Notes: a model not told the origin generated them from the sequence alone. A stretch of DNA of 64,000 nucleotides from Bryobacterales bacterium (GCA_963834525.1 CAWICA010000002.1:36666-100665), one strand, 5' to 3'. Positions 26,581 through 44,978 are shown, numbered from the stretch's first letter. Numbers and translations are program-made.

Positions 26581-30096
<3,516 letters not shown>

Positions 30097-30205: not shown

Positions 30206-31234
30206 TCAATAATGAAAGTGATATTGATGATACGACCTTAGAATTTTTGCTCCCAGGCGCTGCCAAGTGGAATGAATCCTGCCTGAGAGCTGTGTGCCAA
30301 TCTGAACGTATTCAACGTCCTTTTCCTTAAGCCAATTTATGGTGGCGTGGACCAGGCATTTATAAATCCCACGTCCTTGGAACCCAGGTTTTACAGCATT
30401 AAGCGGAATGGTGGCAATGTTCTCGCCCGTTTGGCGCTCCTTCGTCGACGGCAGCTTTACCGATAAAAAGCCTGCCAGTTGCCCACCCTTTTCATAGACA
30501 AGTACTCGGTCGGCAAGGTCGCCGTCAAGACATCGGCTCACCCATTGGCGATAGAGAAGGCGAACCTGAGCCATGGAAAACATTGGATCGTTACTGAAAT
30601 GGTTCACACTATTTTTACGATCGCCAAAACACTCTTCGGCTATTTCTTCAAGCGGCAGACGATCTGTTGCCACAGCCGGCCGGATGAGGGAATCTGACAT
30701 CAATAGATCAGCTTGCCTTATTGCCAACCGATAGATGATCACAGTGTCGGCCAAGAAAAAGTTGCTTCTGGCCAACGCTATCGGCATAAGTCCATCATCA
30801 GCTTCGACAGAAGCAGTCAAATGAGTAAGCGCCTGTTTCTTTCCCTCCGCACAAATGAACGAGATAAAGTCTTGAGCCTCATTCACCACCTGCCAATTCA
30901 ATGAACTGAGTGAGGGGCTCAAGATTGGCTCAACTTTGCCGAATCTTCCTTCAAAAAACTCTGAATAGAAGTCGACAACTCTCAGGCCAGCCAAATACTG
31001 ATCGCCTGTAGCTGACGAGCCATAAAGCCAGGAAGCATCACCTTGAAGAAGCTTTTCCGAGACCAATGGGACAGCGCTTGCATTTTTGTCTCCGTCAGGA
31101 CCGGACTGTCCAGATTTTGTCGCTTTTCTAACTAGATCTTTGGCGATTTTAAGATCCTCCTCACTTTGCAAAATGGAAGTCTGTAGCGGAATGGAGGAGC
31201 ACGTCATAGTTAATAAGCTAGAACAGTCAGACAA
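30206..31234 (-). CDS. WecD-like GNAT N-acyltransferase, paralog 3 of 3 (most divergent)
   Basis: 342-aa ORF. 'CFGDRKNSVNHFSNDPMFSMAQVRLLYRQWVSRCLDGDLADRVLV' and 'PGFQGRGIYKCLVHATINWLKEKDVEYVQIGTQLSGRIHSTWQRLGAKILRSYHQYHFHY' parallel the other two copies. Confidence 0.55.
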   Translation of the reverse strand: MSDCSSLLTMTCSSIPLQTSILQSEEDLKIAKDLVRKATKSGQSGPDGDKNASAVPLVSEKLLQGDASWLYGSSATGDQYLAGLRVVDFYSEFFEGRFGKVEPILSPSLSSLNWQVVNEAQDFISFICAEGKKQALTHLTASVEADDGLMPIALARSNFFLADTVIIYRLAIRQADLLMSDSLIRPAVATDRLPLEEIAEECFGDRKNSVNHFSNDPMFSMAQVRLLYRQWVSRCLDGDLADRVLVYEKGGQLAGFLSVKLPSTKERQTGENIATIPLNAVKPGFQGRGIYKCLVHATINWLKEKDVEYVQIGTQLSGRIHSTWQRLGAKILRSYHQYHFHY

Positions 31235-31287
31235 AGGAGTTAGTAGCCTGGCTCACTGCTAGCCAGTGCAATCGTATGAAGAATTGC

Positions 31288-31359
31288 AATTGAATTGTAC
31301 CTTACGGATTCCAGAGCTCGGCAGACGGCTAGAAATGAGAGCTCAAATTGAATTGCACC
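31288..31359. promoter_or_regulatory. Pair of 14-bp direct repeats (AATTGAATTGYACC) spaced 58 bp apart in a divergent promoter region
   Basis: aattgaattgtacc at 31288-31301 and aattgaattgcacc at 31346-31359. They lie between the divergent starts at 31234 (-) and 31451 (+). Confidence 0.25.
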
Positions 31360-31450
31360 GAAGTTAGAAGTTTTGAAGGGTGCTGTTGCAGTCATGAACT
31401 TAAGAGATACTGCTTAAATAAGCGGACATCGGTGAAGCTCAGAAAATCTC

Positions 31451-32191
31451 ATGCTCAGTTCGAAAGTCTTGAAAGAAGACAATTCAAAAGTCGCAGTTAA
31501 AACGCTAGCCGTCCTACAACCAGGCTACTTGCCTTGGCTGGGATTTTTCGATCAGCTGCTCAAAGCTGACATTTTTGTTCTTTACGATGATGTGCAATTT
31601 GATAAGAGCGGCTGGCGTAATAGAAACCGCATTAAATCCCCAAGCGGGCCGCACTGGCTTACAGTTCCAGTGCGCGTTAGCCATCTGGGTCAGTCGATTT
31701 TAGAAGTGGAAATTGACAATCGTCTGCCTTGGGCTCGCAAACATTTGGGCACGATCAGCCAGTTCTATAAAAGAGCGCCTTACTTTCAACAGTATTTTTC
31801 AACGCTGGAAGAGCTCTTGCATAGAAAGTGGGAGCTCATTGTTGATTTGGATATTGCCTTGATCGAGCAATTCCGAATCTGGCTAAATTTGACGACGACG
31901 ATCGTGCGATCGTCTGAATTGAACGTGCCTGGCGATCGAAGCACCCGCCTTCTTAATCTTTGCTCATTATTTAAGGCCAATCAATACATCAGTGGCGATG
32001 CCGCCAGGAGTTATTTAGATGTAGACTTGTTTGAGCAACATGGTGTGCAAGTCCAGTGGCAACAATATGTTCACCCGATTTACCCGCAGGGTGAGGGAGA
32101 GTTTGTTCCCTATTTGTCGACACTAGATCTGCTGCTTAACTGTGGTGACGCCAGCCGTTCTATTTTGGCTGCTGAGGCGACGGCGCAATGA
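31451..32191 (+). CDS. WbqC-family protein (function unknown, associated with O-antigen loci)
   Basis: 'LAVLQPGYLPWLGFFDQLLKADIFVLYDDVQFDKSGWRNRNRIKSPSG..WLTVPV' matches my recollection of the WbqC-like family N-terminus. It lies immediately upstream of an aminotransferase. Confidence 0.65.
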   Translation: MLSSKVLKEDNSKVAVKTLAVLQPGYLPWLGFFDQLLKADIFVLYDDVQFDKSGWRNRNRIKSPSGPHWLTVPVRVSHLGQSILEVEIDNRLPWARKHLGTISQFYKRAPYFQQYFSTLEELLHRKWELIVDLDIALIEQFRIWLNLTTTIVRSSELNVPGDRSTRLLNLCSLFKANQYISGDAARSYLDVDLFEQHGVQVQWQQYVHPIYPQGEGEFVPYLSTLDLLLNCGDASRSILAAEATAQ

Positions 32192-32221
32192 AGCACTTTA
32201 ACTAATTGAGGAGACGAACTG

Positions 32222-33361
32222 ATGACCTCGGTATTGAATACGGTGTCCTTCTTCATGCACGATTTAGGGCAGGCCGAATTGGATTCAATTGGCGAAGTAT
32301 TGAAAGGCCCGATTTTAACTACCGGTGAATCAGTCGTCAGATTCGAAAATCGATTCGCTGAGTATCTAGGCGTCAGTTATGCACTAGGCGTGACGAGCTG
32401 CACAGGCGCCTTACATATGTCTTTGATCGCACTAGGAATCGGTGCGGCAGACGAGATAATTACTACACCCCAGACATTTATTGCCTCGGCCACATCAATT
32501 CTCGAAGCTGGAGCCAAGCCTATTTTTGTCGATGTCGAGCCTACTACCGGTAACCTCGATGCAGCAAAGATTGAGGCAGCAATTACCGATCGAACCAGGG
32601 CAATTCTTCCTGTCCATCTCTACGGCCAGATGTGTGATATGAAGGCAATTCGCCAGATTGCCGACAAGCATGGATTGTACGTAATAGAAGATGCGGCGCA
32701 TTGTATAGAGGGACGCCGCGATGGAATAGCCCCAGGACAGCTCGGCGATACGGCTTGCTTCTCCTTCTACGCCACCAAAAATCTTACCTGTGGCGAAGGC
32801 GGCGCAGTAGTGACCAATAGTCAGGTTTTGTACGAAAAACTAAAACTCCTGCGCGTACATGGCATGAACAAAATAGCGGCAGATAGAGCGAAAGAGGGAT
32901 ACAAACACTGGGACATGTCCATCCTCGGCTGGAAATACAATATGGACAATATCCAGGCTGCCATTCTTCTTCCTCAGCTAGACAGACTGGAATCCAATTG
33001 GCTTAAACGCGACAACCTGGCAAAACGTTACGAAGCCTTGCTTAGCGATGTTCCAAGTGCCAGGCGACCGCAAACACAAAATGGTGTAAGACATGCCTGG
33101 CATCTCTTTCCAATTTGGGTCGACAAAGCCAAGAGAGACAAAATTATCAACGGCTTGCAGCAGCGCGGCATTAGTGTGATGGTCAATTACCGAGCCATAC
33201 ATTTGCTCACATACTTTGCCGAGCATTTCGACTTCAAACTGGGCGATTTCCCGGTAGCGGAGATGATCGGAGACAGCACAATTTCGTTGCCGTTTTATCC
33301 AAACATGCCTGTCGAACACGTCGATTATGTTGTGCAGTCGCTGCAAGAATTGTCAGATTGA
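32222..33361 (+). CDS. DegT/DnrJ/EryC1/StrS-family sugar aminotransferase
   Basis: 'SCTGALHMSLIALGIGAADEIITTPQTF', 'IEDAAHCIEG', 'FSFYATKNLTCGEGGAVVTN'. A GAGGAG Shine-Dalgarno-like sequence lies 8 nt upstream of the ATG. Confidence 0.85.
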   Translation: MTSVLNTVSFFMHDLGQAELDSIGEVLKGPILTTGESVVRFENRFAEYLGVSYALGVTSCTGALHMSLIALGIGAADEIITTPQTFIASATSILEAGAKPIFVDVEPTTGNLDAAKIEAAITDRTRAILPVHLYGQMCDMKAIRQIADKHGLYVIEDAAHCIEGRRDGIAPGQLGDTACFSFYATKNLTCGEGGAVVTNSQVLYEKLKLLRVHGMNKIAADRAKEGYKHWDMSILGWKYNMDNIQAAILLPQLDRLESNWLKRDNLAKRYEALLSDVPSARRPQTQNGVRHAWHLFPIWVDKAKRDKIINGLQQRGISVMVNYRAIHLLTYFAEHFDFKLGDFPVAEMIGDSTISLPFYPNMPVEHVDYVVQSLQELSD

Positions 33362-33370
33362 TTCAGCCGA

Positions 33371-34471
33371 CTAATGCATCTCTTTCTTGCCGGACGCCGC
33401 AATGATCGGGATCTGGCGCATCCACATCTGAGGCTGCCACCATGCCTGGTTATGCTGATACCAATCTATCGTTTGTCGAAGCCCTTCTTCGAAAATAGTC
33501 CTTGGCTCCCAACCCAAGATCTCCTTGGCTTTCGACGCATCACAGGTATGCCGGAACACCTGCCCTGGACGATCTCCAACCGATTGGATATGGCTTCCTC
33601 CCTGGTTTGGATTGCGCAAAACAAGATCTGTTTTCCGACGTCCGCCGCCGACTGCTGCGAACTCCCGATCAGGAACTTCCATTTCTTTCTTTACCGCTTG
33701 CGCGATCTCCAGCACACTGCGATGCTCGCCTGTGCCAAGGTTAAATACCTGGCCAACCACTTTGTCACGCTCAACATGGATGAAACGATCCAGGGCATCG
33801 CAGTGATCTTCGACAAACATCCAGTCTCTAGCAGCAGAACCATCGCCATGTACTGTAATTGGCTCGTCCAGGATGCAGCTGGTGATAAAGCGCGGAATTG
33901 CTTTTTCCAAATGTTGAAAAGGACCGAAATTGTTGAACGGTCTAATAATCACCGCCGGAATCTGGTAAGTCGCCCAATATGAGTAAATAAGCCGATCTGC
34001 ACCACACTTCGCGGACGCGTAAGGACTCATGGGGTTCAGCGGGTGATCTTCATCCATCTTGTCGGTGAGGGCACTGCCGTACACCTCTGATGTCGAAATA
34101 TGCAAAAAGCGCTCCACCCGGTTGCGGTACTTGGCAACAGCATTAGCAACAGTCTGGGTGCCGATCACGTCGGTCTCGAAAAACAATCGATTGTCGTAGA
34201 TGGATCGAGTAACATGCGACTCAGCCGCCATGTGCACAACGACATCTGCTTGCGACACAAGAGTGTCCATCAATTCGCCGTTGCGCACATCGCCATACCA
34301 AAACTCATAGCGTGTCGAGCCGAAAGCACCATCGGGGCAGTTCTGCACACTGCCAGCGTAGGTGAGGGCATCAACTACCAGAATGCGGTAATCCGGATAC
34401 TTTGTATAAAGATGCTTAACAAAGTTGGAACCGATGAAGCCGGCTCCTCCAGTAATTAAGATGGTCTTCAT
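33371..34471 (-). CDS. rfbB: dTDP-glucose 4,6-dehydratase-like SDR
   Basis: 'MKTILITGGAGFIGSNFVKHL..VVDALTYAGS', 'HMAAESHVTRSI', 'ISTSEVYG', 'SPYASAKCGADRL', 'RPFNNFGPFQHLEKAIPRFI', 'VHGDGSAARDWMFVEDH'. The start is taken at ATG 34471; the track ORF starts at GTG 34519. Confidence 0.8.
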   Translation of the reverse strand: MKTILITGGAGFIGSNFVKHLYTKYPDYRILVVDALTYAGSVQNCPDGAFGSTRYEFWYGDVRNGELMDTLVSQADVVVHMAAESHVTRSIYDNRLFFETDVIGTQTVANAVAKYRNRVERFLHISTSEVYGSALTDKMDEDHPLNPMSPYASAKCGADRLIYSYWATYQIPAVIIRPFNNFGPFQHLEKAIPRFITSCILDEPITVHGDGSAARDWMFVEDHCDALDRFIHVERDKVVGQVFNLGTGEHRSVLEIAQAVKKEMEVPDREFAAVGGGRRKTDLVLRNPNQGGSHIQSVGDRPGQVFRHTCDASKAKEILGWEPRTIFEEGLRQTIDWYQHNQAWWQPQMWMRQIPIIAASGKKEMH

Positions 34472-34817
34472 GTTCCCTCGTTTTGGATAGCTCTGAAATG
34501 CCTGGCAGGCTAGACGCACAGGAGATGTGAGAACTGGATGGTATTGCTGGCGGACATAGTCACGTTAGCAGTATCCCTTACAATCACCGTAATCAGATCA
34601 CTCTCTGAATCTTTTTAAATTGCACCTGATCGCCTGCCACTGCCTGGCAGTGCATAGCATGATATTTGTCATGAAGTAATATTGCTTAGCAAATAAGTCG
34701 AGGGATCTTACTGCACTGACGTTACCATCAGCTCATTACTAGCGTCGTCCTAAGTCATATAATTGCTAGTCGCAAGCAATTGTGCTGCGGGCACTTGCTG
34801 GGGCAAGGATTTCGAAC

Positions 34818-35937
34818 ATGGTCCTCCAAGTCGAACCGAAAACAGAATATGGGCTAAGACCTGGCGCAGAGGAATTTCCTCTCATGGTCGTAATGTCCAT
34901 CATTTATCCTTGCAATTTCGGCTGTCCGATGTGTCCATACACCGATGGCAATTCGGACATCCGCAAATTTTATCGCGAGCGCGACGGCGAGCTATTCCCA
35001 GTCGAACTCTGGAAAAGCATTGCCGACGAGGCTGCCCTACCAGGCCTGGATGCGTTGCACCGGTGGCGGTGAACCAATGCTGCACCCTCAAATGGTTGAA
35101 ATGGTGGAATATGCCAGAGAGAAGGGCGCTCGGATCTGGATGAACACCAACGGCAGCATGTTCGGGCCACATCCTAAGAGTCGCGCAAAACTGGAGCGCA
35201 TCATTAACGCGGGCACGGACTTAATCGAGTTTTCGATGGATGCCGGCGATGCTCAAACTTATGCCAAGCTAAGACCACCAAGAGGCGGGTTGACCCGACC
35301 GGAAGAAGAGTGGTGGGCGAATCAAGTAGGCAATGTCAAAGCTGCCTTGGAATTACGTAAGAAGCTAGTGCGTCCGACTCGAGTCGTAGTATCAGTCATT
35401 CGTCAGGAAGCGATCGAAGGTAAGTTACAAAAGGCCGTAGACTTCTGGCTGAACGAGATCGGCGTAGACGAAGTGATTACACGCAAATTTCTCACCTGGG
35501 ACGACAACACACAGATACCTCAAGGCAAGGCCCTGGATAAACACCTGTACCATGATTTGCCCACCAAAAAGGAGCAACCATGCGTTTGGCCTTTCGAGCG
35601 ATTAAATGTCGACACGCTCGGGCGCATTTCATTATGCGGGCAGGACATTTCGTTTCGCACGGCAGACCTCTTCCCTAACGCCAACGACAAATCAATAAAA
35701 GAGATATGGCAAGGCGACGTTTTCAATTGGTACCGCAGCATGCATCTAGAAGGGCGCGGTGCTGAATGCTTCCCCTGCCGCGGCTGTTCAGCCTGGCTAG
35801 CTGGAGTGCGCGATTGGGAACATGGTTGGTTGAAAGTCCTGCGCAGTTCTGCGGATCACTTACGCAAGGTAATGGCTGAAGATCTTGGCGCCGAAGTGGA
35901 GATCTATACACCGCAGGCAGCGAAAACTTCCGTATAG
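34818..35937 (+). pseudogene. Radical SAM enzyme with a Cys-rich SPASM-like C-terminus, split by a 1-nt frameshift near 35030-35045
   Basis: The cluster motif 'YPCNFGCPMCPY' is in the frame of ORF 34782-35072. The expected downstream 'GGGEPMLHPQMVEMVEYAREKGARIWMNTNG' and the C-terminal 'QPCVWPFERLNV..SLCGQD..ECFPCRGCSAW' are in the frame of ORF 34945-35937. The frames join at 'gctgccctacc' (CCC run at 35035-35037). Confidence 0.7.
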
Positions 35938-35971
35938 CATTCGCTCTCATCCGGCAGTGCAAGGTGTCTAA

Positions 35972-37467
35972 ATGACAGATATTTTCTCTACTATCCTCTC
36001 ACCGCCTGGATTTTTTCATCCACAACTTTCGATTGTTACACAAGCGGCTTTCCGAGCGAGCTATGGCGTCTTGTTAATGGCCACTCTCATTATGGTGTTA
36101 CCGCATTGGCAAAGATTCTTTCTCAGCGAACGTTGGGGTGGCTACGCACAATCAACTCCTGATGTGGACTTAATCCAGAATCCCATCGTTACGAGAATTA
36201 TCGCAGTAGTCTGGCTTGCCCTAGCAATCATGCTTATCGTGGGGTGGCATCCGGTATTGGCTTCAGCGATCAATTTGGTTTTATGTCGCTATTTTTTCAT
36301 CCACATGCGTTGGAAGGGGATACTTCGTGGGTTCGGAGCGCCGGGTTTCATCACCTATTGGACTGGTCTTGTAGTTTTTCTCTTGAGTTGACTTTGCACT
36401 ACGCAATACAACAAAGGCCATTAGCTCTTTCGACCGCGCAGATCGACTTCGCTTTCATTATGCTGTCCGCCGGCCTGTATAAATTTACAGCTGGATATGC
36501 TCAAAACAACGGTATGGAGTTCGGCATGGCCAACCCGCAGTGGGGTTGGTGGTGGAAATTTTGGAAGAACATTTCGCCGGAAAACATCGTTTTCAAAACC
36601 CTAAATCATTTTGCCTGGAGTACAGAGGTAGCGGCCGGCATATTGATGCTCATACCGCAGACACGCTTCATAGGCGGTTCTTTGATTCTTCTTAGTTTCA
36701 TTTTTATAGCCACCCAAATAAGGTTGGGTGTGCTTTGCGAGATGGTCATAGCTGACTGCTTCATTTTTTTCCATCCCGGCAGTCCAGGTGATCATCTCTT
36801 GCAAGCGTGTCTATTGTCCCCAATGCAGACACTCAACTTTGCACCACAAAATGTTCCGATCCTCAGTACAGTGTTGATGATTCTGCTAGTTGCATATCTG
36901 GTCATTCTACCGTTTGCCCATGCCGGACTCTTTTACAATTTCTACGGCCAAAAAGCTTTGCCTGGAAAATTGCAAAGCGTACTGGAAAGATATACCAATT
37001 TCTTCGGCATTATCATCTGGCGAGTCTTTTCAGTCGATCATACGAACTTCTTTCCGCTGATCTATCGCCAGAAGCGCGATGGCTCGGAACGCGAACTGAT
37101 TACTAATTACGGCTGGCAAGGCGGACTGCGCTTCGATAATGTCGGTGAATCCATTGTATTGACGTGCCTTTTTACAACGCTCAAATATTATGCAAGTAAT
37201 CAAACGCTCTTCAATGAAAGACTGCAACGTTACGCCCGCACTCTTCCTTGTTCCGCCGATAGTCTTCTCGAGTTCGAATACAAAAGCATCCGCAAGACGA
37301 ACCAGGGTTTTGATTTTGTTCAGGTCGCCTCTTACTTAGTTGACCCGGTCAATAATTCTGTCATCGAAACAATCATTGACGCCTCTCATTCCGTCCATGC
37401 TGCTCACCACACTTCACCCGTTCAAGAAGGTGTCCGACCGGGCAGCTACGTTCCTCTAGGCAGGTAA
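35972..37467 (+). pseudogene. Polytopic membrane protein (weak HTTM-like N-terminus) with a soluble C-terminal domain, apparently split by a frameshift near 36375-36390
   Basis: ORF 35972-36391 ends inside a hydrophobic helix ('ITYWTGLVVFLLS*'). The adjacent frame continues 'LELTLHYAIQQRP..FAFIMLSAGLYKFTAGY..WGWWWKFW' through further TM segments. A T5 run lies at 36375-36379. An alternative reading is two separate genes. The family call is weak. Confidence 0.5.
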
Positions 37468-37469
37468 TT

Positions 37470-39392
37470 ATGTGCGGCATCGCTGGTGTCTTTGGCAAAA
37501 ATGACTTGGCTACGGTTGAGTCCATGCTTGATCGCTTAATCCACCGCGGACCAGATGATGGTTATGCGGTAAGTGGCACAAATTATGCCTTAGGAGCAAG
37601 GAGACTGAGCATTGTTGGCGTGGCTGATGGACGACAGCCTCTCTCAAATGAAAATGGACGCGTCTGGGCTGCGCAAAATGGAGAGTTGTATAACTACCCA
37701 AGCAAAAAATTGGAGCTAATTGCCAAAGGACATAAGCTCCACACCGGATGTGATACCGAGATGCTTCCCCATCTGTATGAGGAATATGGGAGCGATCTCG
37801 TCCAACATATTGACGGTATGTTTGCCGTTGCCATCTGGGATGAAGAGAGGCAAATAGGCGTTCTGGCTCGCGACCGCATGGGGAAGAAACCGCTCTATTA
37901 TTACGAAGATAATGGTTCGATTTACTTTGCCTCTGAGATCAAATCGCTTCTATGCGTACCGGGATTCAACCGGCGTATAAATCTCCAAGCACTAAATTAT
38001 TTTTTGAGTTTCAAACACGTTCCCTGCCCTCTAACCATTTTTGAGGGAATACATGTTTTACCCCCAGCTCATGTGCTCCTTTTTCAATCAGGTAAGTCTA
38101 TTGAACTTCGTCGCTATTGGCATATCAATTGGTCAGTTTCTGATGAACTAAGCAACTTAAGCCAAGATGACTTAGCTGATATGCTACTCGACCGTCTTCG
38201 TAAAGGTGTTGAGAAACGCCTGATGTCCGATGTACCGATCGGTTTTTTCCTTAGTGGTGGCATCGATTCAAGTTTATCCACAGCGCTGGCTGCAGAAATA
38301 TCTGCAAACAAAATAAAGACCTTTACGCTTACCTATGGCGATAGTTCGACAACTGCGGGCAAGGAAGAAGACAGAAAGTGGGCCCGCTTTACAGCGCAAA
38401 AATATGCTACAGAACACCACGAGGAAAACGTCGAATTTGCCGACTTCCCAGAAAATCTCCGCAAGATCATCGCCTGTTTTGATGAGCCTTTTGCCGGCAC
38501 TATCTCTACCTACTTTTTGGCTAGCCTGATCGCCAAGCACGTAAAAGTTGCGCTCTCTGGTGATGGCGCCGATGAATTATTCGGCAGCTACTTGTCCCAT
38601 CGTTTGGCCACGCCGCTATCTAATTATCCTCGCTTTTTGAAAAGCGGTGACTTGGACCTGATCAAGCCATTTCAGTCTCAGATCGACCTACTAAAACGTC
38701 TCTACGAGCCAAACGACTGGCAGTGGCGAGCGAAGCTCTGGGTCTACGAGGAAGATGAGAAAAGACAGCTACTATCGGCCGACATTTACGCCGCTCTCCA
38801 AGGCGCCTCCGCGCTCGAGCGGACTAGAGAGGATTTTTCGGGACTGACGGCCACCGATCCATTGAACAGGGTATTGGAAGCTGAGTACAAAACGATATTT
38901 CCCGATCAAGTTCTGGCATTTGTAGACAGGCTCTCGATGGCCCATTCCTTGGAAATTCGTAGCGCCTATCTGGATACTGACCTTGTGGAGTTCGCTACTC
39001 GCTTACCAGGCCATCTAAAAATTAAAAATGGCGAAACAAAGTATCTACTTAAAAAGGCTGCTTTGAAGTACTTTCCAAAGGAAATGGTGTTCCGCCAGAA
39101 AGAAGGCTTCCTGATGCCTATTACCAACTGGTTGCAAAAAGATCTCGAGAGCTATGTACGTGACACACTTAGCCCGAAAAGATTGAGTAAACATCAGCTT
39201 TTCAACCCTGCAACAGTTCAGCATTTGCTGGACGAACTTTATAATTCCGAGTGTGACTACAGGCATGTGAACAAAGTCTTCTCGCTAGTTGTTTTCCAAG
39301 AATGGTTCGAGCTTTATATGGATCACGCCGGTGCTTTACAAACAGGCTCTGGCCGAATTGCTTGCAGTTCTACTGCTATTCCCTGTTCCTGA
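37470..39392 (+). CDS. Asparagine synthase (glutamine-hydrolysing)-family amidotransferase, AsnB-like
   Basis: N-terminal nucleophile 'MCGIAGVFG', 'HRGPDD', 'NGELYNY' and PP-loop 'FLSGGIDSSL'. 640 aa. Confidence 0.85.
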   Translation: MCGIAGVFGKNDLATVESMLDRLIHRGPDDGYAVSGTNYALGARRLSIVGVADGRQPLSNENGRVWAAQNGELYNYPSKKLELIAKGHKLHTGCDTEMLPHLYEEYGSDLVQHIDGMFAVAIWDEERQIGVLARDRMGKKPLYYYEDNGSIYFASEIKSLLCVPGFNRRINLQALNYFLSFKHVPCPLTIFEGIHVLPPAHVLLFQSGKSIELRRYWHINWSVSDELSNLSQDDLADMLLDRLRKGVEKRLMSDVPIGFFLSGGIDSSLSTALAAEISANKIKTFTLTYGDSSTTAGKEEDRKWARFTAQKYATEHHEENVEFADFPENLRKIIACFDEPFAGTISTYFLASLIAKHVKVALSGDGADELFGSYLSHRLATPLSNYPRFLKSGDLDLIKPFQSQIDLLKRLYEPNDWQWRAKLWVYEEDEKRQLLSADIYAALQGASALERTREDFSGLTATDPLNRVLEAEYKTIFPDQVLAFVDRLSMAHSLEIRSAYLDTDLVEFATRLPGHLKIKNGETKYLLKKAALKYFPKEMVFRQKEGFLMPITNWLQKDLESYVRDTLSPKRLSKHQLFNPATVQHLLDELYNSECDYRHVNKVFSLVVFQEWFELYMDHAGALQTGSGRIACSSTAIPCS

Positions 39393-39451: not shown

Positions 39452-40645
39452 ATGACGGAAAACCAACGATCGCAAGTCGCAACCAGCAATGAAAATTACA
39501 TTCAAGCTCCTGAACTCAAAGCGTGGAGCCCAGGCAAGCTAACTGTTGTATTGCGCGCGCATAAAGGCGCTAATAGAGTCCAGCTATTGAATGCCCTGAA
39601 CTCTCTAGTTGCTCAAGATTATGTGCCGATGGAGATCCTGCTTGTCACTGATGATTCAGACATGACAGCGCAGGAGAGTTTGCGCTCTCTCGTTGCTTCG
39701 AGCTTCAAAACTCAAGAAGAGAAAAAACAAGGCAAAGTGCTTTTTTGCGATTGCTCTGATCTACAAGATTCCAGATCTCGACTCCTTAACGAGGGGATAC
39801 TCAGCGCTTCTGGTCAATATTTAGCCTTTCTGGATTATGACGACATAGTCTATCCGAGCGCTTATTCGACTTTGATTGATGAACTGATAACTTCTGGAAA
39901 GGCAGTGGCAGCAGGCGGCTGCAAAGTCGCACAGATGTCCTGGAATGGGGAGGACCTAGTTCAACTTAAGCTGCGTGATTTGGAACTGAAAGGCTCCTCC
40001 AAGTTAGATTTATGGCGAGCCAATTTCTTACCGATCCACAGCTTTGTCCTCAATCGAGCATTAATCGCAAACGAGCTTTTGCAAACGAACCAATCTCTCA
40101 ACCGCTTAGAAGACTACTGGCTTCTTCTTCAAATCTCATTCGCCGTAGAATTTTCATTTACGCGAATGGACAAACCGGTCTGCGAATACAGAACTTTCAG
40201 TGCCGATCTTTCTGGTGCCCAGACTTCAGACTCAAAAGACTGGCAAAGCGCGAAAGATTGCATTGATTTTCTATTGAGAGATTCTTTTGCCAAAGTGCAA
40301 GTCGAAGAGGTATGCCAAGTGTTGCGCGAACTGAGACAAGCAAGTCTCAAATTGGCCGCCGCCTCTGAAGAAGTGTCTCACAAACAGGCAAGGATGACGG
40401 AGCTGAAAGCGACTATACATTCCCTACAACAAGAAAATAACCAGCTCGGCGAAAGAATCGCCAATCTCACAAACCAGGCAGAAGGACTGAAGAGAAACAA
40501 CGAGCAGATGGCGTTGCAGCTCGACCAGCTAAACGCGATACTAGCGAGAAAGCCTTATTTTATTCTCTCCAGGCTGATGGGAGTGGCGGACCGGTTTAGA
40601 ACACGCCGCTCAACTAAAGAGACACTGCAAAACGAGGGCATGTGA
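39452..40645 (+). CDS. GT2-like glycosyltransferase with C-terminal coiled coil
   Basis: 'LTVVLRAHKGANRVQLLNALNSLVAQDYVPMEILLVTDDSDM' and 'YLAFLDYDDIVYPSAY' (DXD retained). The C-terminus is heptad-like, 'MTELKATIHSLQQENNQLGERIANLTNQAEGLKRNNEQMALQLDQLNAIL'. Confidence 0.55.
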   Translation: MTENQRSQVATSNENYIQAPELKAWSPGKLTVVLRAHKGANRVQLLNALNSLVAQDYVPMEILLVTDDSDMTAQESLRSLVASSFKTQEEKKQGKVLFCDCSDLQDSRSRLLNEGILSASGQYLAFLDYDDIVYPSAYSTLIDELITSGKAVAAGGCKVAQMSWNGEDLVQLKLRDLELKGSSKLDLWRANFLPIHSFVLNRALIANELLQTNQSLNRLEDYWLLLQISFAVEFSFTRMDKPVCEYRTFSADLSGAQTSDSKDWQSAKDCIDFLLRDSFAKVQVEEVCQVLRELRQASLKLAAASEEVSHKQARMTELKATIHSLQQENNQLGERIANLTNQAEGLKRNNEQMALQLDQLNAILARKPYFILSRLMGVADRFRTRRSTKETLQNEGM

Positions 40646-41910
40646 CAAATTTAGCGACTGAGAACAACCTACCCGCAAGCGTCGTTCGCCCAGAGCGGAA
40701 GATGCCGACGACTCTATTAGTTACATCGACTAGGCCAGGGGTGGGTACAGTGGGCGAGATTTTCCTTTCTGCTGTTTGCAAATTGTTCTCACGCGGAGAG
40801 CTTTATTGCGTTGCCGGTGTTTCCGTGTACGACATACCTGTTTTGGATCCTGACCTTGATTGGCTCGAAATCAATTCTTTCAAACTCCCTGGCGAATTTC
40901 ACTGGCAATATGAAGAAGAAACACCACTTAAAAAGCTGCTGAGAAAATTTCGCCATGTGGAGTTGTTGAGGGCCGACTTAAGTTCTCACGTGGAAGAACT
41001 TATCACAACAATCAAGAGAAAAAAAATTGAGCTACTTTTGCTCGTCTTGAATAGTCCAAGTATGATCCTGATCGCTGATGCCATTCTCAAACACTCCGAC
41101 ATTCCATCCGTTGCCATTGTTTGGGATCCGATTCAATCGATTACAGAACAACGCAAGATGGATCGCCTAAGTCAAGCCAAACTAGAAGAGCGATTTGATG
41201 CTGTGATCGGCAAAGTAAAAGCCTGCGGGGTAGCGTCGCCTGGCATGAAAGAATATTTGGCAAAAAAGGGCGTGCCTACCAAGGTGCTGATCAATCCAGT
41301 CAATCCTTATACCTCTTTTAAAGACAAAACAAAAGACAAGCTAATTATCAGTTTTGCTGGTTCAATCTATGCACACAAAGAGTTCAAAGCTTTACTCAAA
41401 GCGCTAAACAAATATGACTGGAAAATCAAAGATCGCGCTGTCGAATTACGCATATTCAGTCACTTTTGTGATTTGGCCATCCCTGCTTCGGGCAGGCGAG
41501 TCAATGTCTCATTTAAAGGCCATTTGCGCGAGCACGAATTGTTAGAGGAACTTGCCTCCTCACACGTAGCGTACTTGCCATATTGGTTTGACAAAGAATA
41601 TGCAAATGCAGTAAAGATTTGCTTCCCTAATAAGTTAGCTACTTACGTCGCTGCCGGATGCCCGATTTTATATCATGGGCCTGCCGAATCCACACCTGCG
41701 TCATTTCTGGCAAGATTTCACGTGGGCAAAAGCGTGCACAACGTTGACGCAGACAATTTAGCCGAGGCTCTCGGATCACTCGTTGATGATCAGAAGTTTT
41801 TGGCAGAATATCCCAGCCAACGAGCGAGCGCTATCAGCCAAGAGTTGAGCCCAGATATTTTCAGAAGCAGGTTTCTGGAACTAGTAGCGATGGCGACGGA
41901 AAAGAAATGA
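40642..41910 (+). CDS. Putative GT-B-fold glycosyltransferase, divergent
   Basis: 422-aa soluble ORF. The C-terminal half ('LIISFAGSIYAHKEF', 'FPNKLATYVAAGCPILYHGPAESTPASFLARFHVGKSV') has a GT-B donor-domain layout. The call is weak. Confidence 0.4.
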   Translation: MTNLATENNLPASVVRPERKMPTTLLVTSTRPGVGTVGEIFLSAVCKLFSRGELYCVAGVSVYDIPVLDPDLDWLEINSFKLPGEFHWQYEEETPLKKLLRKFRHVELLRADLSSHVEELITTIKRKKIELLLLVLNSPSMILIADAILKHSDIPSVAIVWDPIQSITEQRKMDRLSQAKLEERFDAVIGKVKACGVASPGMKEYLAKKGVPTKVLINPVNPYTSFKDKTKDKLIISFAGSIYAHKEFKALLKALNKYDWKIKDRAVELRIFSHFCDLAIPASGRRVNVSFKGHLREHELLEELASSHVAYLPYWFDKEYANAVKICFPNKLATYVAAGCPILYHGPAESTPASFLARFHVGKSVHNVDADNLAEALGSLVDDQKFLAEYPSQRASAISQELSPDIFRSRFLELVAMATEKK

Positions 41911-42806
41911 AGCGACCGAGAGTACTGATCTTTGGCGGCAAAGGAATGCTCGGGCACAAGCTGGCTCAGACGATTTCCGAAACCTGCGAAACACTAGCTA
42001 CGGTTAGAGAAACACAATTAGATTCTTTTACGAAGAAAGTTCTCGCTGATGTTGAGATCATCCCTTCAGTGGCAGTGGAGGATTTCGCTCAAATTCAATC
42101 CCTGATCAAAAAGATTCATCCGGCAGTGATCGTGAATTGCGTGGGAATCGTCAAGCAATTGCCGGCAGCGCAAGACTATATCAGTAGTATTGCGGTAAAT
42201 GCCTTGTTTCCCCATCAGCTTGCTCAAATTTGCAGATCAGAGAGCGTCCGCTTGATCGCTTTAAGCACCGATTGTGTCTTCTCCGGAAAGAAAGGCATGT
42301 ATACGGACTCCGACACACCGGATCCTGTTGATCTCTATGGTCGAACAAAATATTTGGGTGAAGTGCCTTTTGAGGGATGTCTGACTATACGAACATCCAT
42401 GATTGGGCGGCAATTAACCGGCACACATGGGCTCCTTGAATGGTTTTTGAATCAGCCTGACGCAAAAGTAAAAGGTTACAAAAATGCCATCTTCAGCGGA
42501 CTGACCACCAATACTTTGTCGCAAGTAATTGCGGAATTGATTTTTAAGCACCCGCAACTGTGCGGAATTTGGCAGGTAGCAGCTCAGCCCATTGCCAAAT
42601 TTGATCTGCTTCATGTAATAAAAGACGTGTACAACTTAGAGGTATCCATCGAGCCGGATACGGCTTACGTTTGCGACAGATCGTTGAATGGAGAAAGATT
42701 TAGAGAAGCCACATCGATAGTGATTCCCGACTGGACTGATATGATTACCCAGATGTACAGAGATCCGACCCCGTATCCAGCGCGGAGCATGCTGCATGTT
42801 AAGTGA
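41907..42806 (+). CDS. RmlD-like 4-reductase (dTDP-4-dehydrorhamnose reductase family, WbvR-like)
   Basis: 'RVLIFGGKGMLGHKL', 'LSTDCVFSGKKGMYTDSDTPDPVDLYGRTKYLGE'. 299 aa. It overlaps the next gene. Confidence 0.7.
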   Translation: MKRPRVLIFGGKGMLGHKLAQTISETCETLATVRETQLDSFTKKVLADVEIIPSVAVEDFAQIQSLIKKIHPAVIVNCVGIVKQLPAAQDYISSIAVNALFPHQLAQICRSESVRLIALSTDCVFSGKKGMYTDSDTPDPVDLYGRTKYLGEVPFEGCLTIRTSMIGRQLTGTHGLLEWFLNQPDAKVKGYKNAIFSGLTTNTLSQVIAELIFKHPQLCGIWQVAAQPIAKFDLLHVIKDVYNLEVSIEPDTAYVCDRSLNGERFREATSIVIPDWTDMITQMYRDPTPYPARSMLHVK

Positions 42807-43866
42807 TAAAAGAGTAGTTGTTTTCGGCGGCACTGGCTCGCTCGGCAAAGTTCTCGTGCGCCGGTTGCTGGAAGGGGAATTGGGCAAACCTAAGAAATTG
42901 CTGGTAGTTTCACGAGATGAAGCTAAGCAACATTTCATGAGACTCGAGTTTCAGAGACTGGCGGCAGCGAGCACGGACGAGATCTTTTACCATAACTACG
43001 AAAGGGTTTTGCAGTTCCACATCGGCGATGTGCGCGACTATAGCTCGGTTTTGACTGCGCTGAGAAACGCCGACTACGTTTTTAATGCAGCAGCATTGAA
43101 GCAAGTACCCGCCTGTGAATATTTCCCGTTTGAAGCCGTACAAACAAATATCGTCGGTGCTGAGAATATTATTCGAGCCGTTAGAGAGAACCATTTGCCG
43201 ATTCAGGCTGTCGTCGGCGTGTCCACTGACAAGGCCTGCAAACCAGTCAATGTTATGGGCATGACCAAAGCGATCCAAGAGAGACTTTACGGCCGAGCCA
43301 ATTTGGATTGCCCGAATACACGATTTGTCTGTGCCCGCTATGGCAACGTCATTGCCTCCAGAGGATCAGTGATACCACTTTTTCGCGAGCAAATTGCCCA
43401 GGGCGGTCCGGTCACCGTAACCACTGCCGATATGACTCGCTTTTTGCTGGGGTTAGATCGAGCTGTTGATACCATTCTCGAAGCATTGAAGAGTGGCAAA
43501 CCGGGAGAGATCTATATCCCCCGCTGCCCGGCAGCAAAAATAATTGACGTAGCCGAAGTAATTATTGGTGACCAGCCGATCGAAATAAAGATCATCGGCA
43601 TTCGACCCGGCGAAAAACTACACGAGTCGTTAATCTCAGCGGAAGAAGGCTATCGGACGATCGAACGAAATGGCTACTATGTCATTCTGCCAATGTTGCC
43701 AGAGTTGCAACCGGACAAATTCGAAGTCTACAAACTTGCGGGACGAGAGTACGATTCGCAATGCGATCTCATGAACAAAGAGCAAATCGAAAAGCTGCTT
43801 AGACAATACAATCTTCTCCTCGACGAAAGTACTCGAGTACGCATCAAACAAAGCCTTGCGGTATGA
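42796..43866 (+). CDS. UDP-GlcNAc 4,6-dehydratase/5-epimerase of the CapE/FnlA/WbjB/WbvB type
   Basis: 'VVVFGGTGSLGKVL', 'SRDEAKQ', 'HIGDVRDYSSV', 'FNAAALKQVPACEYFPFEAVQTNIVGAENI' and 'VSTDKACKPVNVMGMTKA', where Met occupies the usual Tyr position as in CapE. Also 'YGNVIASRGSVIPLF' and 'MTRF'. Confidence 0.8.
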   Translation: MLSDKRVVVFGGTGSLGKVLVRRLLEGELGKPKKLLVVSRDEAKQHFMRLEFQRLAAASTDEIFYHNYERVLQFHIGDVRDYSSVLTALRNADYVFNAAALKQVPACEYFPFEAVQTNIVGAENIIRAVRENHLPIQAVVGVSTDKACKPVNVMGMTKAIQERLYGRANLDCPNTRFVCARYGNVIASRGSVIPLFREQIAQGGPVTVTTADMTRFLLGLDRAVDTILEALKSGKPGEIYIPRCPAAKIIDVAEVIIGDQPIEIKIIGIRPGEKLHESLISAEEGYRTIERNGYYVILPMLPELQPDKFEVYKLAGREYDSQCDLMNKEQIEKLLRQYNLLLDESTRVRIKQSLAV

Positions 43867-44978
43867 GAATAATGACCATTCTGGGCACTCGCCCAGAGAT
43901 AATTCGACTATGCCGAGTAATTGAAAAGCTGGACAAAATATGTGAGCAACTCTTAGTGCACACCGGTCAAAACTTTGATCGGAATCTGAACGATATTTTT
44001 TTCAAGCAACTGAAAATTCGTAAGCCTGATCACATGTTGACGACAGCAGCTGAGACATTCGGCAAGCAAGCCGGAAATATTCTCTCATCCTGCGAAGAAC
44101 TAATGCTGAAGCTAAGGCCCGACCGCTTGCTTGTTTTGGGCGATACCAATAGCGCCTTATCGGTCATACCAGCTAAACGGCTGGGCATCCCAGTTTTTCA
44201 TATGGAGGCCGGCAATCGTTGCTTTGACGATCGAGTGCCTGAAGAGGTAAACCGGCGAATTATCGATCACTCCAGTGACATACTGATGCCTTATACCGAA
44301 CGAAGCCGTGCCAACTTGTTGCATGAAGGAATAGAGAGCAAGCGCATTTTCGTGACGGGCAATCCAATTTTCGAGGTAATTGAATATTATGCCCAGGAAA
44401 TAGAAAAGTCACCGATATTAGCAAAATTGTCCATTGAGCCGCACAAGTATTTCTTAGTCACTGCTCACCGTGCCGAGAATGTGGACGTCGAAAATCGGTT
44501 GCACCACATAATTCAGGCGCTGGAGACCTTGCACAAACAGTTTGGCATGCCAATTATAGTAAGCACCCACCCGCGCACAAAGGCTCGTATAGAACAGTTC
44601 AAATTCTCAGCAGGCAGTGCGGTCCGCTTTTTAGAGCCTTTCGGATTCCCCGACTTTGTTCAACTCGAGAAAAACGCATTCTGCACGCTCACCGACAGCG
44701 GCACCGTCCAAGAAGAGTGCTGCATCTTACACGTGCCTAATGTCACCATTCGCGACACAACAGAAAGACCTGAGACGATCGAAGCAGGCAGCAATATCAT
44801 ATCGGGCATCGGAACCGAGAGCATCGTACGTGCTGTTAAGGTAGCAGTGGAACGCGGTTGCAGTTGGAATGCACCGAGTGAATATCTCGCCCGGTCAGTG
44901 AGTGATACGGTTATTAATATCGTACTTGGCTATTCAGAATCACGAGTTGATACCCCTGTGCCCGATAACAGACAGTAA
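43863..44978 (+). CDS. Non-hydrolysing UDP-N-acetylhexosamine 2-epimerase (CapG/FnlC/WbvD/WecB family)
   Basis: 'MTILGTRPEIIRL', 'HTGQNFDRNLNDIFFKQLKIRKPD', 'VLGDTNSAL', 'HMEAGNRCFDDRVPEEVNRRIIDH', 'DSGTVQEE'. Confidence 0.85.
   Translation: MRIMTILGTRPEIIRLCRVIEKLDKICEQLLVHTGQNFDRNLNDIFFKQLKIRKPDHMLTTAAETFGKQAGNILSSCEELMLKLRPDRLLVLGDTNSALSVIPAKRLGIPVFHMEAGNRCFDDRVPEEVNRRIIDHSSDILMPYTERSRANLLHEGIESKRIFVTGNPIFEVIEYYAQEIEKSPILAKLSIEPHKYFLVTAHRAENVDVENRLHHIIQALETLHKQFGMPIIVSTHPRTKARIEQFKFSAGSAVRFLEPFGFPDFVQLEKNAFCTLTDSGTVQEECCILHVPNVTIRDTTERPETIEAGSNIISGIGTESIVRAVKVAVERGCSWNAPSEYLARSVSDTVINIVLGYSESRVDTPVPDNRQ

Follow-up and report, generated by a model that had tools for sequence, protein, structure and literature searches.

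We examined a 64,000-nucleotide stretch of DNA from a Bryobacterales bacterium (GCA_963834525.1, CAWICA010000002.1:36666-100665; referred to below as 'the window', with all positions counted from its first nucleotide), in which a glycan locus contains three consecutive genes on the same strand that encode a radical SAM enzyme, a polytopic membrane protein and an AsnB-type amidotransferase. A preliminary description of this region, prepared from the DNA sequence alone, had placed these genes directly after a divergent intergenic region of 346 bp, and our analysis recovered the same arrangement at the same coordinates:

34818..35937, plus strand: radical SAM enzyme of ~373 amino acids with a twitch-like auxiliary-cluster domain (Pfam Radical_SAM and SPASM matches and motifs; ATG at 34818).
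35972..37467, plus strand: polytopic membrane protein of 498 amino acids, distantly similar to HTTM proteins and vitamin K-dependent carboxylases (AlphaFold2 (AF2) model, Foldseek and hhalign).
37470..39392, plus strand: AsnB-type glutamine-dependent amidotransferase of 640 amino acids (Pfam GATase_7, GATase_6 and Asn_synthase).
34472..34817: divergent spacer of 346 bp between a dehydratase gene and the radical SAM gene (from the sequence).

The three genes are co-directional and tightly packed (the first gap running from 35937 to 35972 and the second from 37467 to 37470), and the AsnB reading frame starts 2 nucleotides past the stop codon of the membrane protein gene. The length given for the spacer presumes that the dehydratase gene on its other side starts at the ATG at 34471. 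A search of the spacer against Rfam gave no match, and promoter-like sites within it were not above those found in shuffled controls.

The motifs reported earlier for the first gene product, CNFGCPMC (CX3CX2C) and GGGEP, are both present and are invariant across the family alignment, placing the protein in the radical SAM superfamily; its C-terminal fragment alone matched Pfam Radical_SAM (PF04055) with 30.7 bits, relative to a cut-off of 29.5. The same protein had been credited with a SPASM-like, cysteine-rich C-terminus. That assignment holds in that the Pfam SPASM model was matched above its cut-off (28.9 versus 21.5 bits), but only four C-terminal cysteines are conserved in the family alignment (C256-X17-C274-X46-C321-X2-C324): of the full seven-cysteine SPASM motif, which includes CX2CX5CX3C, the CX2C element is present and the CX5CX3C part is not. 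Because just these four cysteines are conserved, the domain is better termed twitch-like, which fits a single auxiliary cluster. Their spacing resembles that of the auxiliary cluster ligands of BtrN. BtrN and BlsE, which are both sugar-acting radical SAM enzymes, were also the only two PDB sequence matches, BlsE to the N-terminal half and BtrN to the C-terminal domain of the protein; both matches are weak (E ~4e-5), and the window enzyme is ~120 residues longer than BtrN. None of the named radical SAM equivalogs (BlsE, W-cofactor maturase, NirJ, AhbD, PqqE, MoaA and others) was matched above its NCBIfam cut-off, with the top score being 57.7 bits against a cut-off of 380 and the BlsE model scoring 25 against 400. 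The enzyme thus falls outside the housekeeping families, as had been supposed.

A search for homologues of the radical SAM enzyme found 685, and the 120 of these that were listed share 70–84% identity, values that mark an unusually conserved family. In the family tree it is accompanied by a sister clade (bootstrap 100/99) with a different conserved gene context that lacks sugar genes. The sister-clade loci (L049, L051, L057, L069, L077 and L079, and also L031 and L067) come from metagenome-assembled genomes (MAGs) of Vulcanimicrobiota, Burkholderiales and Selenomonadaceae, and their cassette combines the radical SAM gene with genes for a DUF4178 protein, a spermidine-synthase-like membrane protein, a flavin amine oxidase, a pentapeptide-repeat protein, a PGM1-like ATP-grasp ligase, a cytidine-deaminase-like protein and an O-methyltransferase.

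The product of the second gene is, as previously described, a membrane protein of about 500 residues (498 in our analysis) with a tryptophan-rich loop, WGWWWKFW. It gave no Pfam, NCBIfam or PDB sequence match. An AF2 model built from a 42-sequence alignment has a pLDDT of 93.7 and a pTM of 0.92, and contains a C-terminal soluble domain of 150 residues. When this model was compared with known structures using Foldseek, human gamma-glutamyl carboxylase (GGCX) was the sole fold match, covering both the membrane domain and the C-terminal, beta-rich domain. Sixteen GGCX entries were returned (best E 1.8e-7, probability 1.0, ~500 aligned columns), and the next unrelated match, with nothing else lower, had an E-value of 0.38.

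The protein had also been described as having a weak HTTM-like N-terminus. The resemblance to HTTM stands, and extends over the whole protein and not just its N-terminus. The most distant members of the family touch Pfam HTTM (E 1.5e-5), DoxX, MauE and LMF1, four families of a single Pfam clan, and one distant member scores 25.1 bits against the PF05090 (HTTM) cut-off of 27.7. Comparison of the family with a small HTTM profile, composed of human GGCX and three canonical HTTM proteins from the window's own genome, supported homology (hhalign probability 88%, E 3.4e-6, 251 columns). Two hhalign runs paired K169, the sole invariant lysine of the family (within SAGxYKxTAGY), with GGCX K218 (within IAGVKKLDADW), so that the two proteins share an AG-x-x-K motif containing the catalytic lysine, and the comparison with the HTTM profile also paired the nearly invariant E217 with GGCX D263, an acidic residue in both. 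In GGCX, vitamin K hydroquinone is deprotonated by K218, which serves as the base (PMC12647623). From these sequence and model comparisons, the assignment of the membrane protein as a divergent member of the HTTM/vitamin K-dependent carboxylase superfamily that keeps the quinol-activating lysine is strongly supported. The preliminary description had called it a 'dedicated' membrane protein; it is indeed linked to the gene cluster described below, and is more than that, namely a vitamin K-dependent-carboxylase-like enzyme.

A profile search of 1.84 billion representatives recovered just 408 relatives of the membrane protein, which argues that the family is compact and separate; the listed homologues are 54–63% identical to it. 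Lysine and arginine counts taken over the alignment (the positive-inside rule) place loops 1, 3, 5, 7 and 9, together with the C-terminal domain, in the cytoplasm. The conserved motifs are therefore predicted to face the soluble enzymes encoded by the neighbouring genes. Beyond the points of likeness given above, the protein differs from GGCX in several respects: identity is ~15%, with no Pfam HTTM match; it has ~500 residues as opposed to 758; and its predicted active face is cytoplasmic, whereas that of GGCX is luminal.

These features bear on the possibility that the protein is a non-catalytic anchor or transporter, which either tethers soluble enzymes near the glycosyltransferases and the Wzm/Wzt exporter or moves a lipid-linked intermediate. 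Such a role would agree with the lack of a sequence family assignment, and the 150-residue soluble domain might serve to dock AsnB. It does not account for the polar residues located inside the membrane, of which K169 and D157 are invariant family-wide and E217 is nearly so, nor for the alignment of the invariant lysine with the catalytic lysine of GGCX, nor for the nearby DCC1 redox partners described below; we assign it a low probability.

The three canonical HTTM-domain proteins of the same genome (regions C5:183346-184602 and C5:2316480-2323799) include one with a DCC1-like domain either fused to it or next to it. Another HTTM protein in this genome is encoded 4 kb from, and on the same strand as, a second AsnB paralogue (36% identity).

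The third gene product was confirmed, by its domains and motifs, to be a 640-residue glutamine-dependent amidotransferase of the AsnB type. It has the N-terminal nucleophile cysteine (MCGIAG) and the PP-loop motif SGGIDS of B-type asparagine synthases, and matches Pfam GATase_7 (E 7.8e-41) and Asn_synthase (E 4.3e-85) as well as NCBIfam TIGR01536 (426 bits versus a cut-off of 267). Its top-scoring NCBIfam model is TIGR03108, the XrtA/PEP-CTERM amidotransferase, whose cut-off it does not reach (481 bits versus 816.9). AsnB-type enzymes require a carboxylate; among them, WbpS and WbtH amidate uronic acids. The enzyme resembles WbpS, WbtH and TIGR03108 members in combining AsnB glutaminase and PP-loop synthetase domains within a polysaccharide locus, and differs from them in that no uronic acid pathway is conserved with it and in that it is translationally coupled to a membrane enzyme. 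The formation of acetamidino groups, as by PseA and LfnA, had been offered as another precedent. The matches lend this no support: TIGR03573, the PP-loop family of the PseA/LfnA/WbuX-type acetamidino-forming amidotransferases, is absent from the ten NCBIfam families matched by the window protein. The nearest relative of the window protein with a solved structure is 7ylz, a hydroxyamidotransferase whose substrate is a small-molecule acid.

Apparent frameshifts had been reported in two of the three genes, and both were found: the radical SAM gene contains one frame change near 35035-35038 (at 'gctgccctacc'), and the membrane protein gene contains one at 36384/5. One frame change in each gene, together with the patchy occurrence of the cassette (two of 41 genomes), would be expected if the radical SAM and membrane protein genes were true pseudogenes in this organism and the pathway were dead. 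The comparison of the window with independent contigs from the same population argues otherwise. A 3241-nucleotide contig from run ERR12035941 (L095) aligns to window positions 35589-38825 with zero substitutions and two single-base indels. At 36384/5 it contains an A that is absent from the window (CTCTT-GAG in the window versus CTCTTAGAG in the contig), and with that A the membrane protein gene is one open frame. The second indel is reciprocal, with the contig lacking one G of a GGG run at window position 35620, where the window itself is in frame. The frame change in the membrane protein gene is an assembly error, and so at least one of the two frame changes is artefactual. The protein encoded on this contig (P0241) is the second member of the 90%-identity cluster that holds the window's membrane protein fragment, and is an intact, otherwise identical copy of 498 residues. 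Of the positions that are invariant in the family the intact membrane protein retains all 49, and of the near-invariant ones it retains 76 of 78.

A further contig from the same run (L099, 4050 nucleotides) is 100% identical to window positions 30988-35034 and breaks off precisely where the radical SAM gene changes frame, its last 3 bases being divergent. Over the 7.3 kb covered by these independent contigs there are zero substitutions and two reciprocal single-base indels which, with the contig break at the C-run, bear the signature of indel errors and not of gene decay. At the frame-change position of the radical SAM protein, each of the 12 aligned homologues carries a single residue, a proline in 5 of them, and the window is for that reason most simply read as being short of two bases in its C-run (gcc-c..-tac). 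The protein collection yielded no intact and near-identical counterpart of the N-terminal region of this protein. We regard the pseudogene explanation as improbable, given the intact copy of the membrane protein gene, the retention of all invariant residues and the occurrence of further frame changes elsewhere in the assembly. This outcome agrees with the premise of the preliminary description that the genes are not decayed, and its practical lesson is that the frame changes that had raised doubt about them included at least one assembly error.

The genome assembly totals 4.8 Mb in 8 contigs (completeness 92%, contamination 4%), and this small number of contigs suggests that it was made from long reads. 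Within the window, a PMM/PGM-like gene ~5 kb upstream is also split by a single frame change, at 29985-29997 (open reading frames (ORFs) 29731-30096 and 28665-29993, minus strand), which brings the number of frame changes to three within 6.4 kb. Elsewhere in the genome, a UbiA-family gene (C4:54697-55367) has matches in two frames with three internal TGA codons, and looks frame-changed as well. As a probe of assembly quality, rpoB was intact, but such a short target says little. Two full-length rpoB genes are present (C5:614267-617401 and C4:1011975-1015127; 1164 and 1173 amino acids); the copy on C4 has a much lower score, and represents either a paralogue that has diverged or an indication that the bin is mixed. 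In a different MAG, whose assembly includes a 1.1-Mb contig and is possibly also from long reads, the radical SAM and membrane protein matches are truncated or split (L076:10001-12780), and similar frame-change artefacts may therefore be present in other assemblies.

To examine the distribution of the three genes, we scanned one genome per species and recovered 80 loci, nearly all of them from MAGs, in which the partners were located using tblastn with each of the proteins of the cluster. Two loci have no MAG label: L039, where the module is present, and L030, where there is just the radical SAM gene. Co-occurrence was scored in those 53 non-redundant loci of the radical SAM gene that have 6 kb or more of flanking sequence on each side. 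The membrane protein and an AsnB-type gene are both present in 41 of these 53 loci, all six partners in 21, and none in nine; genes for WbqC-family, RmlB-like dehydratase, PseC-like aminotransferase and PseH-like acetyltransferase proteins are the usual companions. Mining of gene neighbourhoods had been proposed as a check on the idea that the trio forms a functional unit of an unusual glycan-tailoring route, and this wide co-occurrence supports that idea. In 37 loci the AsnB gene follows directly after the membrane protein gene, with an apparent gap of no more than 34 nucleotides. Eleven phyla share the gene order radical SAM - (GNAT) - (DCC1) - membrane protein - AsnB, namely Acidobacteriota, Melainabacteria/Cyanobacteriota, Planctomycetota, Chloroflexota, Nitrospirota, Methylomirabilota, Binatota, Latescibacterota, Actinomycetota, Bdellovibrionota and Pseudomonadota. 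Because these phyla are intermixed in the radical SAM tree, the distribution indicates horizontal transfer of the module. A Gemmataceae locus and a further contig (L001), for example, both have the order radical SAM - GNAT - membrane protein - AsnB, with WbqC, dehydratase and aminotransferase genes beside it, and the radical SAM protein of L001 groups with that of a Melainabacteria locus.

The corresponding genes of the window, and those that follow the trio, are as follows:

33371..34471, minus strand: RmlB-like NDP (nucleoside diphosphate)-hexose 4,6-dehydratase, divergent from the radical SAM gene (NCBIfam dTDP-glucose 4,6-dehydratase).
32222..33361, plus strand: DegT/PseC-like sugar 4-aminotransferase (Pfam DegT_DnrJ_EryC1, E 1.9e-120).
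31451..32191, plus strand: WbqC-family protein (PF08889; Pfam WbqC, E 1.2e-77).
30206..31234, minus strand: 341-residue protein with a C-terminal GNAT domain (Pfam Acetyltransf_1, E 5.5e-6).
39452-40645 and 40642-41910: two glycosyltransferase genes, between the trio and the L-hexose cassette (Pfam).
41907-44978: downstream cassette of RmlD-like, FnlA-PseB-like and WecB-like genes (Pfam and NCBIfam).

The dehydratase scores 329 bits against the NCBIfam dTDP-glucose 4,6-dehydratase model (cut-off 365), and the top NCBIfam match of the aminotransferase is PseC (339 bits, cut-off 423.5). PseC is also a component of pseudaminic acid synthesis, and the partner genes share with the PseB/PseC/PseH part of that pathway the logic of a dehydratase followed by a 4-aminotransferase and an N-acetyltransferase. 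They differ from it in that all scores of the module proteins lie below the respective cut-offs, the dehydratase is RmlB-like rather than PseB-like, none of PseG, PseI and PseF is among the recurrent gene families, and a GalU-like nucleotidyltransferase gene accompanies the module in 10 loci. In other genomes the GNAT gene of the cassette lies between the radical SAM and membrane protein genes, and the top NCBIfam match of its product is PseH, a 4-amino-sugar N-acetyltransferase. In the window, the 341-residue protein with a GNAT domain may be a stand-in for this enzyme. A gene for a DCC1-like thiol oxidoreductase (PF04134, E 2e-18) lies immediately upstream of the membrane protein gene in 13 loci; its product is a possible counterpart of VKOR and a possible recycling partner for the membrane enzyme, with the difference from GGCX that the partner is DCC1-like and that the genes sit in a sugar-nucleotide context as opposed to acting on peptide substrates. 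In Pyrinomonadaceae, Wzm/Wzt export genes lie directly upstream of the cassette.

The preliminary description had correctly placed the trio two genes upstream of a cassette for UDP-2-acetamido-2,6-dideoxy-L-hexose (the two intervening genes being those for the glycosyltransferases), and had proposed that the trio modifies that sugar. The latter proposal finds no support across the 80 loci, in which the genes of the L-hexose cassette accompany the trio in just 1 to 3 cases, and we rejected the link: it is the WbqC, RmlB-like dehydratase and PseC-like aminotransferase genes that accompany the trio in most loci instead. That the module genes point to a 4-amino-4,6-dideoxyhexose, and not to the neighbouring L-hexose, is strongly supported by these sequence-based associations.

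The same survey bears on the idea that the trio is a cassette for the modification of a ribosomally produced, post-translationally modified peptide (RiPP) that merely resides within glycan loci. For all three proteins there are indeed relatives that modify peptides (SPASM maturases, GGCX and lasso cyclases, respectively), with AsnB scoring 209 bits against the lasso cyclase model, for which the cut-off is 525. AsnB nevertheless retains the glutaminase cysteine at its N-terminus, the association with sugar-nucleotide genes is maintained from one phylum to another, and any small ORF lying outside the large genes is shared by 4 loci at most; with no conserved precursor-peptide-like ORF beside the modifying enzymes, in or around the cassette, we rejected a RiPP maturation cassette as a candidate and consider this explanation very improbable. 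As a general statement, apart from any particular chemistry, we hold it to be quite probable that the three genes make up the core of a conserved module of ~7-8 genes for sugar tailoring.

The gene content of the module suggests the following pathway. The RmlB-like 4,6-dehydratase and the PseC-like aminotransferase would generate an NDP-4-amino-4,6-dideoxyhexose, in which the nucleotide is probably UDP (uridine diphosphate) or dTDP (deoxythymidine diphosphate). This would be N-acetylated by the PseH-like GNAT in most genomes and here perhaps by the GNAT protein encoded beside WbqC. The membrane enzyme would use menaquinol and O2 to generate a strong base, which would abstract a proton from an activated C-H of a sugar substituent (such as the methyl group of the N-acetyl), and addition of CO2 would then yield a malonyl group. 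The translationally coupled AsnB would adenylate the new carboxylate and convert it to a carboxamide using glutamine-derived ammonia, and DCC1, where present, would recycle the quinone. The twitch-type radical SAM enzyme would contribute one further radical tailoring step, and the product would enter the ABC-transporter-dependent polysaccharide of the surrounding locus. A supply of menaquinone through the futalosine route is suggested by three MqnA/MqnD-family genes in the same genome, from which the classical MenA is absent.

We believe carboxylation followed by amidation to be the simplest scheme, because AsnB needs a carboxylate, no sugar 6-dehydrogenase or other uronic-acid-forming dehydrogenase is among the gene families that recur in these loci (leaving no other obvious source of that carboxylate), and the carboxylase-like gene is directly upstream of, and coupled to, the AsnB gene. 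This carboxylate-then-amidate chemistry, comprising quinol/O2-driven carboxylation of carbon on the N-acyl group of a 4-amino-4,6-dideoxyhexose, formation of a carboxamide by AsnB and recycling of the quinone by DCC1, is possible, and we put it forward tentatively. The reading as a whole, with both the sugar-tailoring module and its chemistry included, is our best explanation of the locus and stands at roughly an even chance of being right.

Several observations weigh against this reading. The TM-scores between the membrane protein and GGCX are moderate (0.42 / 0.34), and none of the 42 family members reaches the PF05090 cut-off, with no Pfam model being passed. The carboxylase orthologue of Leptospira is said to epoxidise vitamin K without carboxylating. 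Neither N159 nor H160, the GGCX residues that bind the glutamate substrate, is conserved, with the aligned segment (RWKGVLRGMGAPGF) lacking an N-H pair, and the human GGCX sequence that entered the profile was checked at eight residues, whose numbers match PMC12647623. The window lacks a DCC1 gene, and its block does not include a PseH-like GNAT, with tblastn finding no orthologue of the cassette GNAT in or near the window. Finally, the chemistry of the radical SAM fold appears not to be tied to sugars, since the sister clade of the enzyme is found away from sugar genes, among ATP-grasp and polyamine-type genes.

The conservation of quinol-activating residues without those that bind glutamate is also what would be expected if the module were the same and the membrane protein acted as a quinol-dependent oxidase, epoxidase or base without carboxylating. 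It could then epimerise or oxidise its substrate, and the carboxylate used by AsnB would come from elsewhere, either as a malonyl, succinyl or aminoacyl group added via GNAT or WbqC or from a uronic acid in the same repeat. The amidation of uronic acids by WbpS and WbtH, and the action of the closest solved AsnB relative (7ylz) on a small-molecule acid, are compatible with such an arrangement. The absence of a uronic-acid-forming dehydrogenase from the recurring families is not, and the membrane protein and AsnB genes are so tightly coupled as to suggest consecutive steps; we judge this alternative to be rather unlikely.

If the carboxylation scheme were correct, it would provide the first sugar substrate for the carboxylase superfamily, extending the substrate range of this class of enzymes to nucleotide sugars or glycans, and a new route to malonamide-type sugar decorations. 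It would also suggest a testable role for the largely unexplained bacterial HTTM and DCC1 proteins, and would make a common surface-glycan decoration of soil bacteria predictable from sequence. The known cases of vitamin K-dependent carboxylation are those of animal proteins and one bacterial antibiotic pathway. A recent preprint documents HTTM-DCC1 fusions and recalls MloH as a bacterial orthologue that carboxylates a small-molecule intermediate. The membrane protein would resemble MloH (2018 work, as cited in PMC12647623), an HTTM-type enzyme from bacteria that acts on the cytoplasmic side, where its carboxylation of a small-molecule intermediate gives a malonate-type group; MloH differs by being a recognisable HTTM protein of a polyketide-peptide pathway. 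The membrane protein family forms a separate clade of ~400 clusters at 50% identity that is tied to AsnB, radical SAM and amino-sugar genes. A distant, unannotated branch of the carboxylase superfamily seems to have become fixed in a sugar-tailoring module in at least 11 mostly uncultured phyla, and this module is small enough to be reconstituted in a heterologous host. Searches of the literature on WbqC, on HTTM together with radical SAM, and on the carboxylase together with asparagine synthase returned no description of the module or of WbqC function and no report of this type of enzyme in glycan synthesis, to which a carboxylase-superfamily enzyme appears here to have been recruited.

The AF2 model of WbqC has a pLDDT of 92.5. 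The protein has no PDB sequence match and no significant PDB fold match (best E 0.024); its best, weak fold resemblance is to nucleotidyltransferases (cytidylyltransferases) and class I tRNA-synthetase-like proteins, which gives a hint that it might act as a ligase. A variant of the module, in which WbqC is missing, is present in eight loci (L011, L014-L018, L074 and L076). The AsnB-type gene of this variant shows only ~40% identity; it follows the membrane protein gene at a distance of 2.6-3.7 kb downstream (0.6 kb in L074), with an intervening ATP-grasp (PylC/CPSase-like) gene.

Among relatives of the Bryobacterales bacterium, whose genome is alone in its genus, the membrane protein is carried by one of 40 genomes (its own included, by two of 41 genomes of its family and class), a patchy presence that is as expected of a variable glycan locus. 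The sole carrier among the relatives (G019) has two copies of the membrane protein gene (C224:880-2373 and C5:69299-70594), of which one is close to that of the window (721 bits) and one is divergent (309 bits).

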